This document shows positions 18,306-28,727 of a stretch of DNA of 64,000 nt, piece after piece. This DNA comes from an uncultured Candidatus Poseidoniales archaeon (GTDB lineage: Archaea > Thermoplasmatota > Poseidoniia > Poseidoniales > CAYMED01), in contig CAYMED010000001.1 of assembly GCA_964389655.1 (NCBI GenBank), positions 1-64,000 of the forward strand, in the 5' to 3' direction. Position 1 is the stretch's first letter. Every line of letters starts with the position of its first letter. A program made the position numbers and the translations under genes. The notes beneath the pieces were generated by a model that saw only the letters and a list, made by a program, of their open reading frames with translations, had not been told where the DNA came from and made no database searches.

Positions 18306-18788
18306 ATGGGATCAAATGCGCGAAATGTTCGAAAACGAGCAAACCGACACTATGAAGCAGGACTTATTTTGGGTGATCTGCGCCGTCAAATGAGGATACC
18401 CTCTTCTGAAGGAGGAGCCCCTATTGCTGTTGTCGAAGGGCGAAATGACCTCGCCACATTGGATGAACTTGGAATTAGAGGAATAATTCTCACAATAGGT
18501 GATGGCCGGCCTCTTCCTGAGACGGCTGAACGCATGATGGCCGCCGCCATTGAATCTAGTTCACTGGATCCAACAGTCATTCTTCTAATGGATTGGGATC
18601 GAACAGGGGGCCGGCTACAGCGTAAATTGAATCTCCTCTTGGATGGTTCAGGGGTATTTGTTGATAATTCGATAAGGGCGGCGTTAATCACTCTCCTGAC
18701 GCCAGAAACGCGTACAATTGAATCGATACAGGGTTGGCCAGACCTGATCCGTGGGATGTCTCAAGAAGATTCAGAGATGGTTGACTAA
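18306..18788 (+). CDS. Small Toprim-domain protein (RNase M5/primase-like)
   Basis: VVEGRND and LLMDWDRTG (Toprim E and DxD). Confidence 0.8.
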   Translation: MGSNARNVRKRANRHYEAGLILGDLRRQMRIPSSEGGAPIAVVEGRNDLATLDELGIRGIILTIGDGRPLPETAERMMAAAIESSSLDPTVILLMDWDRTGGRLQRKLNLLLDGSGVFVDNSIRAALITLLTPETRTIESIQGWPDLIRGMSQEDSEMVD

Positions 18789-19978
18789 ATTTCTTGAGTC
18801 TTGGATTTGTGGTAATTTGGGTTTTGGACCTCAACATCGAGAATCCATGTGCCTAACCCCTCAACATCTGCTTCAAGTCCTGCGGTTAGGATCATCAATT
18901 CGTTGTTGGGATTAATTGGGCGTAATTCAAAGGAGGTCGTGATTTCATGCTCCGCTAAGATGCTAATCCCCCCAATTTTCGAGTGTATCCCCCAGCCATC
19001 AGGAGGTCGGACCCGCAATACCTCTAACCCACGTTTTCCGGCCATCACCTTTACCTCTATTCGAATTCCCCGGGGGGTTGATGTGGCCATTCCATTGATA
19101 TCTGGCATCCCTTCTTCTCTGTCTCGATCTGCGAGGGCAACAAGTAGCGTTCCTAGCAATGGTGCTGACATCAGAATCCATGGCCCAATGGTGAATTTTT
19201 TCGATGACTGCATGGCCTCTACAAGGTCGATTATCTCAAGGGATGCCGGCGCCCCCCCTGTCCGATCAAGAAAACCGATGATCAGAGCATATCTCCCTTG
19301 TTCCCCGCTCAATAAATCAACATGATTTGCTAACAAATCTTCTTCTGTAAAATTAAACCAAAGGCTGGAAATTTTCCCTTTTGCTGGATCAAATCGGATT
19401 GAGTGTCGGTAAGCTTGGCCTAAATTTGGTACGGTGTCATAGCCAGCATCATCGAACATTGCAGATTTATCGATGATGATTGCAACGGCATCTATGCTAG
19501 CAGAGAGGTCGTAATTTGGAACTATTTCAACAAAGACAGAAAGCATTGCTCCATCTCCTGAATCGGCCAACCACCTTGCTTCCGTGTGCATCTCAAGTGC
19601 ATCACTTTTCTTTGTTAAATGAGCACTTTGGATTGCTTTCTCTATTGAAGGTGCATCGTTGGCAGGCGTGGCAATGCCATCAACATAGATGGAGGGTGAT
19701 TTCTCAACATCATTTGACATGGCACGCGCAACATATGCCTCCCGCCCCAATTCTTCCGATTCGTTTCGGTGAACCCAACTTAACCATATGATATCTGTGC
19801 GCCCAGGCGGATATAGCACCTCAGCCTCAATAGTTCTACATTCATTACAATGTAATGACGTAAATGATTCAACGAGGATTGGTGATTTATTGCCCGAACT
19901 AGCAGCTGTTAGTGTGGTGCTTGAAATACATATTAGAAAGGCGCAAATGCCAACCGACTTCCAAGTGGTGGCTCCCAT
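18785..19978 (-). CDS. Exported, membrane-anchored thioredoxin-fold CxxC protein (Omp28/DUF1223-like)
   Basis: Signal peptide, LVESFTSLHCNEC, cis-Pro-like SPSIYVDG, an Ig-like segment, a TM helix and a C-terminal beta domain. Confidence 0.65.
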   Translation of the reverse strand: MGATTWKSVGICAFLICISSTTLTAASSGNKSPILVESFTSLHCNECRTIEAEVLYPPGRTDIIWLSWVHRNESEELGREAYVARAMSNDVEKSPSIYVDGIATPANDAPSIEKAIQSAHLTKKSDALEMHTEARWLADSGDGAMLSVFVEIVPNYDLSASIDAVAIIIDKSAMFDDAGYDTVPNLGQAYRHSIRFDPAKGKISSLWFNFTEEDLLANHVDLLSGEQGRYALIIGFLDRTGGAPASLEIIDLVEAMQSSKKFTIGPWILMSAPLLGTLLVALADRDREEGMPDINGMATSTPRGIRIEVKVMAGKRGLEVLRVRPPDGWGIHSKIGGISILAEHEITTSFELRPINPNNELMILTAGLEADVEGLGTWILDVEVQNPNYHKSKTQEI

Positions 19979-20128
19979 CGGTTGGGTTGTGCGCGGTGGT
20001 GCCCATTAAGTGACCGATATGTTCTTGTTAGTCAGACCATTATGGCTTAGCCGATTTTGAAGACTCTAGAAGGTTGCAGGAAGGGGTTTTGGTTATATAT
20101 CTGAGAATACCGATTTGGCCCGGTTGTA

Positions 20129-23100
20129 ATGTCTGGTTGTTCACGCGCTACCTTGCTTTCGTTTTTGATGCTCAGTTCTCTTTGCGTTGCTGCCATGCCA
20201 ACTTTGGCTGAGAATACATCACTAGTTGTAGTGACTGAGCCCATACGCATAGTGGATGGTGGCTCCGTAAATGATCGGACCATAGCAATGGAGGCTGATT
20301 CTGAGGGCAATATCCACTATGTATTTAGCCGTAATTTCCAGCATTTGTATTATGCTATGCGAAACCCCAGAGGTGAACTTCTTATCGATGCAACTCAGAT
20401 TTCGAACTTTGGACAAAGCAAAGCCACCCACCCTGATGTGTCAATTGATGATGATGACCGAGTCCATATTGTGTGGGCAAACCGAGCAGGGCAGCATGCG
20501 ATTATGTATACGGCGATCGACCCATCTCTTGCGGCCCAAAATGGGGTGCAAAGTGATGATATCACGCTGACTGTGATTGATGACACCGTTGTCTCCCAAC
20601 GGTCACAAAATAGAGATTGGCCGGCAATTAGTATTGACTCTCGCGGAAACCCACATATTGTTTGGGAAGATTCTTTTGACCAACTCGACAAATTCTACCA
20701 ACACCCACAGATTTACTATCACATGTTTGAAGTGGATTATATAGGACACCGAGCAGTAACTGCAATCAAAGAAACTCTAATTACCCCTGTAATTGGCCAC
20801 AAAGGCCACCCTGATATTGCAGTAGATCGCGCCAATGGTGATCAAATTCAAATTGTGTGGGATGACACAAGAGGTGGGAAAGTAGAGATTGTTCTTCCTA
20901 TTGATACATCTGGTTCAATGTATTCTGAATGGGCAGATATGTGCACGGTTCTCTATGGAGGTTCTATGAGTAGTGGGGGCAATATGTTGGGCATCAAACC
21001 GATGTTGCAAGATGCAAATATCACTGTATTTGAGACGTTGTATGCGCTCAGCGGAAATTGGCCAGGTGCTGCGATGTCTGGCAACTGCGTTAAGGCCTAT
21101 CAAACAGGTGGATCCGGGTCACAGGGGCCTCGTTCAAATCACTTGGGACAAAATGAAGCCGATCACTCGGGTGGAATACGCGAGTTAAAGGATGTAGTCT
21201 ATGCTGGAAATTCAGTAAATCTTCCGCAAGATGGTGGCTATTACAGTGAGTTTTGGGGCCCTGGCACGACTTGGGCGTGCCTTTCATGGCGTGATGCAAA
21301 TGGAAATACACCCGGGCACCCCCCAACTCCAAAAGATCACAAATGGAATCCTAATGCAACCAAGATCGTCATTCCAATAAGTGATGAAGGACCATATGGG
21401 GGGAGCCCGGATCAACAAGCAGATGATAAGCAGACTATCAATGAAGCCCATGATTCCTGCATCGAAGCGGGTATTGTTCCTGTACCAATGTATGGTGGAG
21501 CCTCAACTGGAGTAGTCTCACACATGTGGGATCTTGCTACTTGTCCCGGAAGTTCGGTAACTACTACGCCTAGAAACTGCAATCCAAATGGTCCCGTAAG
21601 GCAGCAAGATGCTGGCGGTTCAGTGTATGAATTCCCGAGAGGCGGGGGTGGCAACCAAATGGGCAAGCTTGTTGAAGCAATGATTGCTTTGGCAACTAAT
21701 AACAGCCGTGAAATTTACACAACAATCCTTGACCCGTACGTGAAACTACAGGATCCCACCTTTACCTATGGAAGTCCAGCTTATTCTACAAGCGGTGGCA
21801 AGTATACTGAAGATGTTGGCCCAGCAGATGCAGCAAATGGGGACTATCATCTCGTGGTTGTAAATGATACACGGCTTACCCTCAACGATGCTTATTCCTT
21901 CCATCCGTCTATTGGAATTGATAGTAAGGGGTTCAGTCACATAGCATGGATGGACGCGCGTGATTACGGTTTTCGATTGGAACACCCATACGAAGTGTAT
22001 TACATGAAAACAAAATATGCTGGTAAACAACCATTCGACGGTATTGCTGGCGGCATGGGGACTCAGAATGTGTGGGAAGTGACACCTTCTGCAATTTCAG
22101 AAGTGGAAGGCGCCACTGGTTGGGACGGCCGATCAACCATATTTTCTTCTTACTTGCCCAGCCTCATCATAGATACACGCGACAACGTACACCTATCCTG
22201 GGTCGATAATGGCAATACAAGTGCGATACAAGAAGTAGTGTATACTAAGTTGAATGCAACAAGCAAGCATGGCCCATTTATGACCGCGGACGTGGCCTAT
22301 GATGGATGGGACCTCACAAAAATCACTCATTGGCAATCTGCAAAACTTGGCAGTTATCTCTCAAAGCGGCCCGATTTGGGTTGGCCACCAGCACTTGCTG
22401 CGGATATGGGGACGGGCGCCCATCTTGCATGGACAGATACCAACCGATGCAGTACAGAAACGAATAATTTCCTTTATACTGCCTGTTATACACATATATT
22501 GACCGGTATTGTAGAAGTTCAACTCCCTGAAGATGAATCCTATATCCATACGATAGAACCAGGTGAATGGACAAGATTCAACCTCACGGTCAATAATACC
22601 ACCCCGGGCCCAACAGACCTCGTCGCAGACCGCTATCTTCTTAATTTGAGTGAAGAGACATTACCGCGCAATTGGACAGCGAATCTTTACTTTGCTTCCA
22701 ATCACTCACGCGTTCTACCTGACACAGAGATTTTCTTAAAAGGTGGTGAAGCAGAACAACTCTACCTCGAAGTTCGAGCGCCTAGTATTTATCAAGCAGA
22801 CAAGGATCAAGATGCCCCTATTATGGTCACGGCTATTTCAGTCAAAGACTCGGCGATACGTGGTGACCGTTTAACAATCACGCGCATGGATGTTGTACAC
22901 GGGATTAAATTAGACACAAGCCATGTTCTTGCTGATATTGAACAAGGCCAAACGGCGGTGTTTTCAATCACTATAAAAAATACAGGTAATGTTGAGGATA
23001 CATTCTTGTTTTATGACCCTGAGACAATTGAAGGGATAATACAGTGGAACCTTTGCAAAGGATGTGCCATTAAATTTCCAAAATCAGTGACACTTGATCC

Positions 23101-25249
23101 AGATCAAACCACAACAAAAAACCTTGAGATTAGTATCCCTGAAGATCTTGATGCAGGCACCTATCCAATTTACGTGAAAGGTTGGTCAGCGGGTGAACCT
23201 ATTCTTTCCGTTGAGCGAGGGACTTATGACGTGATTGAGCTTTACGTTAATGTGAGTATCAAGAGTGTTGGAAATATTGTTTTCATACCATCTGATACAT
23301 CTAAATTGGTTCTACCGGGGAAATGCAAAGAATATGAGATTGATGTCAAAAAGAATTTTGAATCGGATAACATAATCTTTGATTTACCAGGATATGAGCA
23401 TCAACCATCGAATTTAACTGAATCACAAATCGAAGATTGGAAAGTCGATCATTGGGTCGTTCGCTTCAGTTTCCGTGATGCACCAGGTGGTGATACAGAT
23501 GGCTTTGGGAATGAAGTGCCTTGGGACTCTCCTCGATATTGGAATACTGAATTGCTAGATGGAACCCCCGCATCATACCCAGTATATGTGGAGGTATGTG
23601 CTCCAACAAATGCATCTGCCCGCTTTTCATACCATCAGATCATCAAAGCCCATTTGCAAGGTGCAAGCCGAATTGCTGACTCCGTCGTCTTGTCAACAAC
23701 TGTAGCTCAAGTTTATGAGCTTGAAGTTGAGATGGTTAAGGATAAATCGGTGATCAAAGGCGATCCATCCCTCCCATTATCCGTAGTGGACTCCCAGATA
23801 GAGGGGAATAGTGGATACGTGGTTGAAACAAACCCCGGCCGCATTCTTGAACTACCCATCCATATCACGAATCAGGGGAATGGCCCGGATCGCTGGGACT
23901 TAACCCTAGATGGAATTGTAGATAAAAATGGAAATCGCTACAACTGGGACATAGTACTCAATAAGAGTCAAATTATGTTCCTCGACCGCAATGCAGATCA
24001 AGAGCTTGTTCTTGAAATAGAAGTGCCATATGATTCACTAATGGGTGACTATACTCTTTCATTCAATATTCTCAGTCAGGGTGCGCGCTTACAATCAGTT
24101 CTTCCTGTGCAGGTATCTGTTCTTGAATATCATGACCTGAAGATATGTCCTCGCTTCACCTTGAAATCAACAGTGCTATCTGAGATGGGCTGCGACCGAA
24201 GTGGGGTGATTGATGATCGTGTTGAATCTGCAATTAAGGAAACTGCACCGGGCAAGACCGTTCGATTTGTTTTCAACATAACCAATTATGGGAATGTAGA
24301 GGACCTTGCCACATTCCACGTGCACACAAAATTGGCAAATGGGACTTGGAACTCAGTTCCTGGTTTGGGTTCACTGGAGACATGGAATGTACGTTGGGAT
24401 CAGCGTGTTTGGTACCGCTCCGATCAATTTGCAGACACCCCTCTTACTGAGGATAAGGGCATCTGGTCCATTCCTGAAGCAATAGCACCATTTGCCTCGG
24501 TTACTGTTGTTGCAGTTGTAGAAGTTTCACCTTCTGCCGTACTTGCTGACCGTGCCTTGGGTTTCAAAGTAATGTCAGATGGCGACGATCACGATGAGAG
24601 TCCTACGTGGGAAGGCTATTATCGGGACAGCAACGAAATCGATGTGGAAATACGCCTTCGAGCCCCGAATTTGGTGGTTAACAAAGCAGATCCATTAGCA
24701 ACACGCGCAGATGTGGGCGAAATCATCGAGATTTCCGTTCAAGTTGAAAATAACGGAAATACCCGTGCTGAAGATGTTGAACTGGTTTTATGTGTGGGGA
24801 TGAGTCGTGATGACATCGAGGAAAATGACGAAAAGTGTGATGAGGATAATATCAAAGATCGATTTACAATTCAGCGCATCATGCCTACAAAAGGCGAGAC
24901 TGATGTGATTGATCTTCGTATGGTATATTCCGTTGAAGCAGGTTCGTATGAAGCTTTCATTATCATAGACCATGACGATATAATCGTCGAATCGAATGAG
25001 AAAGACAATATCATTGCAGTTGGTTCTTCAACCGATGAGGGTGCAACTGATTTGTCATCAACTCGTGCGACCCTTGATGTGGCGGCAGAAACTGCAGCAA
25101 AAGTGGCTATGCCTGTATCAGTAACCGTTCTTCTTGTCGTTCTTGCAGTTATTGCCTTCCTTGTAGGTGGTGGACGCCGCAAGGAAGCGATGGATAGAGT
25201 TGCAGAACAATCTAGTTTGATGGTTGCCGGCTCCTCTCAAGATGACTGA
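20129..25249 (+). CDS. Giant cell-surface protein: beta-propeller with inserted vWA domain, five Ig-like repeats, CARDB-like domain, C-terminal TM
   Basis: Signal peptide; 7 blade-like P-x-I-x-x-D-x-x-G-x-x-H-x-x-W repeats; DTSGS MIDAS; repeated PG...F...N.GN..D Ig units; PNLVV...VESNEKDN CARDB-like; TM followed by RRK. Confidence 0.8.
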   Translation: MSGCSRATLLSFLMLSSLCVAAMPTLAENTSLVVVTEPIRIVDGGSVNDRTIAMEADSEGNIHYVFSRNFQHLYYAMRNPRGELLIDATQISNFGQSKATHPDVSIDDDDRVHIVWANRAGQHAIMYTAIDPSLAAQNGVQSDDITLTVIDDTVVSQRSQNRDWPAISIDSRGNPHIVWEDSFDQLDKFYQHPQIYYHMFEVDYIGHRAVTAIKETLITPVIGHKGHPDIAVDRANGDQIQIVWDDTRGGKVEIVLPIDTSGSMYSEWADMCTVLYGGSMSSGGNMLGIKPMLQDANITVFETLYALSGNWPGAAMSGNCVKAYQTGGSGSQGPRSNHLGQNEADHSGGIRELKDVVYAGNSVNLPQDGGYYSEFWGPGTTWACLSWRDANGNTPGHPPTPKDHKWNPNATKIVIPISDEGPYGGSPDQQADDKQTINEAHDSCIEAGIVPVPMYGGASTGVVSHMWDLATCPGSSVTTTPRNCNPNGPVRQQDAGGSVYEFPRGGGGNQMGKLVEAMIALATNNSREIYTTILDPYVKLQDPTFTYGSPAYSTSGGKYTEDVGPADAANGDYHLVVVNDTRLTLNDAYSFHPSIGIDSKGFSHIAWMDARDYGFRLEHPYEVYYMKTKYAGKQPFDGIAGGMGTQNVWEVTPSAISEVEGATGWDGRSTIFSSYLPSLIIDTRDNVHLSWVDNGNTSAIQEVVYTKLNATSKHGPFMTADVAYDGWDLTKITHWQSAKLGSYLSKRPDLGWPPALAADMGTGAHLAWTDTNRCSTETNNFLYTACYTHILTGIVEVQLPEDESYIHTIEPGEWTRFNLTVNNTTPGPTDLVADRYLLNLSEETLPRNWTANLYFASNHSRVLPDTEIFLKGGEAEQLYLEVRAPSIYQADKDQDAPIMVTAISVKDSAIRGDRLTITRMDVVHGIKLDTSHVLADIEQGQTAVFSITIKNTGNVEDTFLFYDPETIEGIIQWNLCKGCAIKFPKSVTLDPDQTTTKNLEISIPEDLDAGTYPIYVKGWSAGEPILSVERGTYDVIELYVNVSIKSVGNIVFIPSDTSKLVLPGKCKEYEIDVKKNFESDNIIFDLPGYEHQPSNLTESQIEDWKVDHWVVRFSFRDAPGGDTDGFGNEVPWDSPRYWNTELLDGTPASYPVYVEVCAPTNASARFSYHQIIKAHLQGASRIADSVVLSTTVAQVYELEVEMVKDKSVIKGDPSLPLSVVDSQIEGNSGYVVETNPGRILELPIHITNQGNGPDRWDLTLDGIVDKNGNRYNWDIVLNKSQIMFLDRNADQELVLEIEVPYDSLMGDYTLSFNILSQGARLQSVLPVQVSVLEYHDLKICPRFTLKSTVLSEMGCDRSGVIDDRVESAIKETAPGKTVRFVFNITNYGNVEDLATFHVHTKLANGTWNSVPGLGSLETWNVRWDQRVWYRSDQFADTPLTEDKGIWSIPEAIAPFASVTVVAVVEVSPSAVLADRALGFKVMSDGDDHDESPTWEGYYRDSNEIDVEIRLRAPNLVVNKADPLATRADVGEIIEISVQVENNGNTRAEDVELVLCVGMSRDDIEENDEKCDEDNIKDRFTIQRIMPTKGETDVIDLRMVYSVEAGSYEAFIIIDHDDIIVESNEKDNIIAVGSSTDEGATDLSSTRATLDVAAETAAKVAMPVSVTVLLVVLAVIAFLVGGGRRKEAMDRVAEQSSLMVAGSSQDD

Positions 25250-26875: not shown

Positions 26876-28727
26876 TTATTCCGAAGATCCATCATCCACG
26901 ACTTCAAATTCAGCATCCACAACACCATCATCTGTTTGAACATCGTCAGCAGATGCCTGCTGATATAGCGCCTCTGTAAGTTCATACATCATTGCTTCTA
27001 ATTCACTTACTTTGGCCTGGATGGCGGCGTCATCGATTTCGTCTAATTCTCTAGGCTGTCCATCAACAACCACGAGACCTTCTAATTCATCCAAGGCGAG
27101 AGTTACTTTCTTTGAAAGATCTTCATCAATTTTTTCAGCATTATCGGCTAAAGTGCGCCTAGTTTGGTAAATAATTGAATCAGCTTGGTTTCTCAGATCT
27201 ACTTTTCCTTTTCTGGCTTTGTCAGATTCAGCATGTAATTCTGCCTCTGCAATTTTTTCTTTAATTTCATTTTCATTCAATGATGTTTGTGCCTCTATTT
27301 TGATAGATTGCTCTTTCCCAGTACCCAAGTCTTTGGCTGAAACAGAGGTGATCCCATTTGCATCAATATCAAAAGTCACTTCAATTTGAGGGATGCCCCG
27401 GGCAGCAGGTGGTATCCCAATGAGTTGGAAATTGCCCAAAGTAGTGTTGTCCTTTGCAAATTCTCTTTCACCTTGTAGGACGTGGATATCTACAGCTGGC
27501 TGGCTATCTGCCGCAGTAGAGAACACCTCGCTTCTTTTACTGGGTATGGTGGTGTTTCGTTCGATGAGGCGAGTCATTACTCCACCTAGGGTTTCTACAC
27601 CGAGGGAGAGGGGCGTAACATCTAGGAGAAGGATGTCTTTTACATGCTCATCTCCTGCAATTATCCCTGCTTGTAGGGCTGCACCCATTGCAACAGCTTC
27701 GTCGGGATTAATTCCCTTGAATGGTGCTGCTTTGAGTCGTTCTTCAATTGCTTCTTGGATTGCAGGAATACGCGTTGACCCTCCAACGAGTAATATCTTG
27801 TCAATATCTTCTGGTTTTAGGCCTGCATCGGACATTGCTTGGTCAACAGGCCCCATCGTTTTTTCAACAAGATCAGCAATAAGTTCCTCAAATCGGGCTT
27901 TAGTTAAATTGAGGTCAAGATGTTCTGGCTGGCCATCACGCATAGTAATGAATGGGAGATTTATTTGAGATGACCCCGAACTTGATAATTCGATTTTTGC
28001 CTTTTCAGCAGATTCCCTAAGCCGGCTCATAGCTTGCATATCAGCACTCAAGTCAATTCCTGTATCTCTTTTGAATTCATCAGCAATCCATTCGACTACT
28101 TTGTTGTCAAAATCGTCTCCGCCAAGTCGATTATTTCCTGAGGGCGCTTTGACCTCAATTTTGGGTTGATCATCGACCTGGTATATTTCTATAATTGATA
28201 CATCAAATGTCCCCCCCCCCCAAGTCATAGACTAAAATTGTCTGATCATCTTCTCGTTCAACCCCATATGCGAGTGCTGCAGCAGTTGGTTCATTGATAA
28301 TACGCAATACCTCAAGTCCAGCGATTCGTCCAGCATCTCGCGTTGCTTTTCTCTGAGAATCGCTAAAATAAGCGGGACAAGTGATGACTGCTTGTTTTAC
28401 TTCCTCACCCAGATATGCTTCTGCATCTGCTTTCAATTTCTGGAGAATAAATGCTGAGACTTCTTGAGGTGTGTATTCATTTTCACCAACTGTTTTACTC
28501 CAATCACTTCCCATCTCCCTTTTGACACTTAGCAGTGTCCTATCAGAATTCGTTATCGCTTGGCGCTTTGCGGTAACGCCAATGAGGCGTTCTCCATCCT
28601 TTGTGAATGCCACTGCCGAAGGTGTTATTCTCGCGCCCTCTGAGTTTGTGATCACTTGGGGGCTTCCCCCTTCTAATGTGGCTACACAACTATTTGTTGT
28701 TCCTAAATCAATTCCTATTACTGCCAT
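26876..28727 (-). CDS. dnaK: Chaperone DnaK (Hsp70), split by a +1 frameshift in a G11 tract at 28211-28221
   Basis: GIDLGTTNS...INEPTAAAL...VYDLGGG in one frame, then GGGTFDVS...[11 protein letters not shown] in the next. A 10-G tract would restore DLGGGTFD. Confidence 0.93.

Follow-up and report, generated by a model that had tools for sequence, protein, structure and literature searches.

A predicted seven-bladed propeller with a nested von Willebrand A domain heads a stalked surface protein of Poseidoniales archaea

The I-domain integrin alpha chains (alpha-L, alpha-M and alpha-X; PDB 5e6s, 5es4 and 9t5w) are type I membrane proteins in which a von Willebrand factor A (vWA) domain with a metal ion-dependent adhesion site (MIDAS) is looped out of a seven-bladed propeller, and which also have beta-sandwich legs, one transmembrane (TM) helix and a short conserved cytoplasmic tail. 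Here we describe an archaeal protein predicted to resemble them in each of these features, with a candidate metal site in the place of the MIDAS. Its gene lies at positions 20129–25249 of a 64,000-nucleotide stretch of DNA (the window) from an uncultured Candidatus Poseidoniales archaeon (GenBank assembly GCA_964389655.1, contig CAYMED010000001.1, positions 1 to 64,000). The 1,706-residue product is a type I membrane-anchored cell-surface protein of Poseidoniales, whose architecture and predicted folds we established by structure prediction and comparison. We favor, with a probability of roughly 60%, the reading that it is a metal-dependent ligand-binding surface protein, either an adhesin or a receptor, with the vWA domain as its functional center.

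Poseidoniales are among the most abundant archaea of the surface ocean and are uncultured. Published genome surveys name archaella, thrombospondin-like and flotillin genes as adhesion equipment (PMC6461757). Our searches of the literature on Marine Group II (MGII)/Poseidoniales, under integrin, von Willebrand, S-layer, adhesion, CARDB and metaproteome, found no description of this protein.

A propeller with a domain nested in blade 4

The gene is a single uninterrupted open reading frame (ORF) on the forward strand, with 1,706 codons and no internal stop; minus-strand ORFs within the same interval are all short (80–103 amino acids). A sequence-only reading had described it as an integrin-like receptor, and every motif quoted there proved to be in place: DTSGS at nucleotide 20903, SEFW, REIYTT at residue 527 and six cysteines. 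Feature coordinates below refer to the forward strand of the window. Seven blade motifs start at residues 52, 102, 165, 228, 593, 677 and 754. We modeled the head (residues 28–800) by AlphaFold from a 34-sequence alignment (pLDDT 85.2, pTM 0.83), and compared the model with 48,161 PDB representatives by Z-score, in a search independent of Foldseek. Complete seven-bladed propellers among these representatives superpose over head-model residues about 5–767, on both sides of the insert. CylK is the top match (Z = 33.4, rmsd 2.5 Å over 352 residues, 14% identity) and YncE the second (Z = 30.5), followed by CIAO1, WDR61, virginiamycin B lyase and WDR5 (Z = 27–30); no seven-bladed propeller other than CylK scored above 30.5. 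With CylK, YncE and WD40 proteins all aligning across the insertion, the seven repeats are predicted to close as one propeller around the insert, as had been proposed from the sequence.

The N-terminal part of the propeller (residues 28–246, nucleotides 20210–20866) comprises the closing strand, blades 1–3 and strands 1 and 2 of blade 4 (PDIAVD..., QIQIVW), and the C-terminal part (residues 527–795, nucleotides 21707–22513) comprises strands 3 and 4 of blade 4 (REIYTTIL...) and blades 5–7. Secondary structure in the model gives four strands per blade. The insert exits after strand 2 of blade 4 (QIQIVW, residues 239–246) and the chain re-enters at strand 3 (REIYTTIL, residues 527–534), so the fourth repeat is the interrupted one, in agreement with the sequence-only reading. 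The N-terminal strand at residues 33–35 takes part in the propeller superpositions, and 'velcro' closure of blade 7 by this strand is therefore likely.

The best propeller matches are enzymes, and CylK stands clearly above the next group. Foldseek matches include the PL25 ulvan lyase, the PL42 rhamnose-glucuronate lyase, sialidases and GH43 proteins, and two studies describe Poseidoniales as polymer degraders (PMC6336850, PMC6461757). These observations would suit a surface-tethered enzyme, in which a catalytic propeller of the lyase, glycosidase or alkyl-transferase type acts on high-molecular-weight organic matter and the vWA domain serves as a substrate-binding or regulatory lid. We consider such an enzyme very doubtful, because the near-invariant residues of the propeller occur only in the structural blade motif (D..G..H-I-V-W), whereas conservation is densest in the vWA domain; because no catalytic Pfam or NCBIfam family matches the protein; and because seven-bladed propellers of unrelated function (WD40s, lectins) score nearly as high.

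The blades match Pfam BNR_4 weakly (E = 0.009). The NCBIfam model 'PDIAV motif-containing lipoprotein' (NF053835) matches residues 14–123 only, at 44.2 bits against a cut-off of 90. We rejected the lipoprotein reading that this match offers, since the score is under the cut-off, a conserved lipobox is absent and only the blade type is in common. Signal peptides of the orthologs are of the Sec type, ending in AEA, VEA or similar, and have no conserved lipobox cysteine.

A function as a metal-dependent adhesin or receptor would depend on the nested domain (residues 247–526, nucleotides 20867–21706), which is enlarged by about 100 residues spread over three loops and contains six invariant cysteines (residues 272, 320, 384, 444, 472 and 484). 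We modeled the insert alone by AlphaFold (residues 244–536; pLDDT 86.3, pTM 0.87), and its 50 best PDB matches are all vWA domains (Z = 9–11.8, 154–200 residues aligned, spanning model residues 5–285). They come from collagen VI, CMG2, TEM8, BatB, vWF A1/A3, integrin alpha-I and beta-I, TRAP, pilus tip adhesins, Rpn10 and Sec23/24. Structural matches in the ESM Atlas also include Pfam VWA clusters. Residues 247–526 are thus predicted to be a vWA fold, and the two structural proposals of the sequence-only reading, a closed propeller and a vWA insert, both hold at fold level.

We propose that the insert bears a putative MIDAS-type site consisting of D259, S261, S263, E374 and/or T380/T381, and D419. 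The first three residues belong to the DTSGS motif (residues 259–263, nucleotides 20903–20917), which in the insert model sits after strand beta1 and before helix alpha1, between a strand at residues 250–258 and a helix at residues 262–276. E374 (nucleotides 21248–21250), a candidate third ligand, lies within SEFW (starting at residue 373) at the junction of two short helices; T380/T381, the alternative third ligand, is in a GxT-like motif that is retained even in degenerate paralogs. The candidate MIDAS Asp, D419 (nucleotides 21383–21385), follows strand beta4 in KIVIPISDEGP, in a region where KWNPNATKIVIPISDEGP spans residues 405–422. When we aligned the family profile with hhalign to 16 canonical vWA domains from other Thermoplasmatota genomes, KIVIPISDEGP and D419 were paired with the invariant MIDAS Asp of the canonical LTDG motif and with the helix and strand that follow it (probability 64.7%, E = 6e-5, 45 columns).

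The candidate ligands are conserved together and lost together. Among the 161 family sequences compared, the quintet D259-S261-S263-E374-D419 reads D-S-S-E-D in all 131 main-group sequences with full coverage, and most paralogs within the order retain it. Four or five of the positions have been lost together in each of the divergent paralogs P0129, P0134, P0135 and P0137 (PTSKY, PNYDV, PASLE and PDSRR), all of which keep the six cysteines; all-or-none loss of this kind is expected of a single functional site. E374 is invariant wherever DxSxS is intact, and it is replaced in four of the five paralogs that have lost most or all of the site (the fifth, P0138, keeps it). As a Glu in place of a Thr, E374 would, if it is the third MIDAS ligand, recall the arrangement in integrin beta-I domains.

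Stalk, membrane anchor and gene

The signal peptide (residues 1–27, nucleotides 20129–20209) has its hydrophobic core at residues 8–27 and is probably cleaved after TLA. Between the head and the membrane lies a stalk of repeated CARDB/NEW3-like beta-sandwich modules (residues 796–1512, nucleotides 22514–24664), recognized from internal repeats and sub-threshold matches. Residues 925–1045 match residues 1215–1335 when profile windows are compared (E = 5e-10), and module-start motifs recur near residues 802, 927, 1231, 1364 and 1524. The sub-threshold Pfam and NCBIfam matches are to NPCBM_assoc, DUF4832, DUF7507, Ig_VWA7 and choice_anch_T; the last of these (choice-of-anchor T, NF041740) scores 58.8 bits against a cut-off of 70 and touches three stretches of the stalk. 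The stalk is followed by a CARDB domain (residues 1513–1629, nucleotides 24665–25015; PF07705, E = 9.1e-8, 32.7 bits against a cut-off of 22.7), the sole Pfam family that scores above its cut-off on this protein. Taken together, the repeats and profile matches would fit a total of about six or seven CARDB/NEW3-like sandwiches, the CARDB domain included. The sequence-only reading had counted five Ig-like repeats of about 125 residues plus a CARDB-like domain, and at sequence level the internal repeats and one CARDB domain bear it out in part.

A poorly conserved membrane-proximal linker (residues 1630–1657, nucleotides 25016–25099) leads to the single TM helix (about residues 1658–1682, nucleotides 25100–25174; Kyte-Doolittle maximum 2.86). 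The cytoplasmic tail (residues 1683–1706, RRKEAMDRVAEQSS..., nucleotides 25175–25249 with the stop codon) is 24 residues long and begins RRK. The signal peptide, lone helix and short RRK tail had all been noted from the sequence. In all 119 orthologs the tail is 21–27 residues long. It reads RRxEAxxRxAE[QK]SS[LM] and then an acidic cluster, and 65 of the 119 tails end in F. Tail identity (42–65%) is well above that of the TM helix and linker. This pattern suggests that a conserved intracellular partner contacts the tail. The distant paralogs P0129, P0134, P0137 and P0138, in which the MIDAS is degenerate and all six cysteines are kept, have cytoplasmic tails of about 100 residues ending IGDL(I/L)DDL(L/W), an ending that may act as a distinct signal for binding a partner. 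With a pI of 4.6 the ectodomain is acidic, and it has a mild excess of N-x-S/T sequons over shuffled sequences (19 versus 12 ± 2.9).

A TATA-like element read in the sequence, TTATATAT at nucleotides 20094–20101, lies 28–35 nucleotides 5' of the ATG. It suggests that the gene has its own promoter, with a leader that would be very short or absent. The gene is divergent from its upstream neighbor. That neighbor (18785–19978, minus strand) encodes 397 residues with no Pfam family (best match Thioredoxin_4, E = 0.25), and it does not neighbor the ortholog that we examined.

Distribution and likely function

Orthologs number in the hundreds, are full-length (about 1,660–1,730 residues) and share 54–70% identity over the head. 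Their product names are 'hypothetical protein', 'uncharacterized membrane protein' or 'CARDB domain-containing protein', and the named sources are Poseidoniales, Thalassarchaeaceae or Thermoplasmatota. An exhaustive HMMER search also recovered diverged relatives, down to about 30% identity, and many proteins that have the blade repeat only. A profile of the insert finds the gene in 149 of the 151 Poseidoniales genomes sampled, representing 22 of 22 genera, nearly always in an ORF of about 1,700 residues. Given the full-length orthologs and this recurrence of the insert, the architecture is not a chance observation. In a phylum-wide sample the gene is present in 64 of the 65 genomes that represent the two large Poseidoniales families and in none of the eight genomes of the sister family of the class, and outside the order there are only three weak partial matches. 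One of the two large families often has 2–4 paralogs per genome, sometimes in tandem, and the other mostly has one. A tandem pair of family copies lies on a single contig of one relative (G122:C363:8079-14205). In its own genome, which falls into a separate family apart from the two large ones (f1, two genomes sampled), the gene is single copy. One study describes a third, deep-ocean MGII family (PMC10480650).

Conservation is uneven along the protein. The vWA domain is the best-conserved region among orthologs (61–70% identity), followed by the N-terminal half of the propeller (55–71%); the C-terminal half of the propeller is 44–49% identical outside the genus. The stalk (36–62%) and linker (24–53%) vary more, and the TM helix falls to 12–25% outside the genus. 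Distant paralogs likewise share 37–46% identity over the vWA domain versus 23–36% over the propeller.

Such a core gene, found in 149 of 151 genomes, usually as one copy, and standing alone without conserved neighbors, could also encode a structural envelope protein: a main S-layer-like or cell-coat protein whose stalk is a spacer, whose heads tile the surface and whose vWA metal site, in place of binding a foreign ligand, makes cation-dependent contacts between heads or within a lattice. The C-terminal TM anchor, the long beta-sandwich stalk, the acidic pI and the sequon enrichment are all in keeping with such a protein, and no Poseidoniales S-layer gene is named in the literature that we searched. 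S-layer proteins as a rule diverge more quickly than an average protein of the same genome, and the 55–70% identity of the head across families therefore argues against this alternative. A passive anchor, moreover, needs no conserved motif in its cytoplasmic tail, and some genomes have 2–4 diverged paralogs. We regard a structural coat protein as rather unlikely.

As a metal-dependent adhesin or receptor, the protein would work as follows. The stalk of about six or seven sandwich modules would hold the head off the membrane, and the head would present a disulfide-rich, divergent vWA domain looped out of blade 4 between its strands 2 and 3. The vWA site would most likely hold Mg2+ or Mn2+, and the bound ligand may complete the coordination of the metal with an acidic group, as happens in other vWA adhesins. 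On the inner side, the short conserved tail would contact a conserved intracellular partner.

Several points weigh against this reading. Conservation near the genomic average and core-gene status fit a structural envelope protein as well. The choice of third metal ligand is ambiguous, E374 and T380/T381 both being candidates, and the hhalign link to canonical vWA domains is a local one, over 45 columns, with a moderate probability (64.7%). The vWA-clan profiles of Pfam (PF00092, PF13519 and related models) have no match to this protein at E-values up to 10, and sequence searches against PDB chains gave no meaningful match for the whole protein, the insert profile or the stalk profile. Finally, comparison of the window with a relative showed no conserved gene neighborhood, and hence gave no operon-based lead to function. 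In the window the gene sits between the gene for the 397-residue unknown protein and a gene for an M17 aminopeptidase, and in the relative the neighbors are DUF2299/acyltransferase genes and an HTH regulator plus topoisomerase VI.

Because no vWA-clan profile matches, the membership of the insert in this superfamily is based on fold and motifs and not on sequence models. When 34 insert sequences of the family were searched against Pfam, six gave vWA-clan matches at noise level (E = 0.09–0.15), and a Pfam search of five sub-segments of the protein returned nothing on residues 240–540. The insert is a vWA family that is invisible to Pfam. Neither VWA (PF00092) nor VWA_2 (PF13519) has a match anywhere in the genome of origin (93% complete), and the cryptic domain of this protein is the only vWA seen there. 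The same two models have matches in one of six other sampled Poseidoniales, compared with 29 of 53 other sampled genomes outside the order.

The function might go further and be integrin-like, with ligand capture at the vWA MIDAS coupled through the stalk and TM helix to a partner that reads the tail, and with the long-tailed paralogs of degenerate MIDAS acting as regulatory or partner chains. We hold this extension to be improbable. If it were true, Marine Group II archaea could control, outside-in or inside-out, how they attach to particles or phytoplankton. As a near-universal, order-specific protein, the product described here is in any case a testable candidate for the main contact organ of Poseidoniales cells, and it is also a candidate virus receptor.

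A language-model lead to viral homologs (a viral cluster, score 0.87) was rejected, as we found no relative in IMG/VR contigs. Elsewhere in the window, dnaK (Hsp70; 26876–28727, minus strand) is split into two overlapping ORFs, one at 28203–28727 (174 residues, matching the Hsp70 profile to about position 196) and the other at 26876–28228 (450 residues, profile positions 194–599). The overlap suggests a frameshift at about 28205–28228, reflecting either a pseudogene or an assembly error.

Comparison with CylK, pilus adhesins and integrins

The closest propeller is the C-terminal domain of CylK (7ron, 7fh6), and the blade types may be akin; there are hints of true relatedness between the 'PDIAV/HIVW' blade type and the CylK/BrtB propeller. 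CylK itself is a different kind of protein, an enzyme of the cytoplasm that carries out Friedel-Crafts alkylation; it has an N-terminal Ca-binding domain and no nested vWA domain, stalk or membrane anchor. The vWA/MIDAS adhesins of pilus tips–SpaC (6m48), PitA (7w6b) and Mfa5 (6tnj), together with PilB (7b7p)–are similar in presenting at the surface a vWA domain that has additional 'arm' insertions and sits on Ig-like or CnaB-like modules, and they match the insert with Z = 9.5–10.1. They are pilus subunits or are anchored by sortase or as pilins, and their vWA domain is not in a propeller, whereas the archaeal protein is the TM-anchored product of a core gene.

Integrin beta-I domains (for example 8vs6_B and 3nid_B) share with the insert a vWA fold enlarged by loop insertions and a DxSxS motif with Glu as candidate third ligand. 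They are the first Foldseek matches of the insert (E = 4.8e-4, TM score 0.34–0.41, 8–12% identity), a marginal likeness. By Z-score, beta-I domains tie with the vWA domains of collagen VI, CMG2 and BatB. The archaeal protein lacks the PSI, hybrid and EGF domains of beta chains, its insert being flanked instead by propeller strands, and the Integrin_beta model of Pfam (PF00362) matches neither the protein nor the family inserts.

For the whole head, the top Foldseek match is the integrin alpha-L headpiece (E = 3.4e-10), aligned through propeller, vWA domain and propeller. Together with the beta-I match and the candidate Glu ligand, this result could be taken to indicate true homology, that is, ancestry shared with integrin alpha chains (propeller plus alpha-I) and/or with beta-I domains. 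Such homology is disfavored, and we judge it very improbable indeed. The TM scores are low (0.21–0.28 for the head, in addition to those quoted for the insert). Integrin alpha headpieces reach Z = 24–25 over about 350 residues, covering the propeller alone, with 4–5% identity, which is below the generic WD40 propellers and CylK, and the insert matches non-integrin vWA domains equally well. Integrin blades are FG-GAP repeats, whereas the archaeal blades are of the PDIAV/HIVW type, with no match to FG-GAP/VCBS models in Pfam; the integrin vWA domain lies between blades 2 and 3, whereas the archaeal one lies inside blade 4. On both counts the sequence-only reading had already set the protein apart from integrins. 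The tails also differ (GFFKR in integrins, RRxEAxxRxAE[QK]SS here), and an integrin alpha chain forms an obligate heterodimer with a beta chain, whereas for the archaeal protein, a single chain, no beta partner is evident. The family, unlike integrins, is confined to one archaeal order, apart from the three weak partial matches elsewhere in the phylum. As far as the models can tell, the likeness to integrins is architectural only and is most simply explained by convergence, as the sequence-only reading had thought probable. The Poseidoniales protein would then be a clean case of the independent assembly of a receptor head in which a propeller with a nested vWA domain is carried on a stalk.

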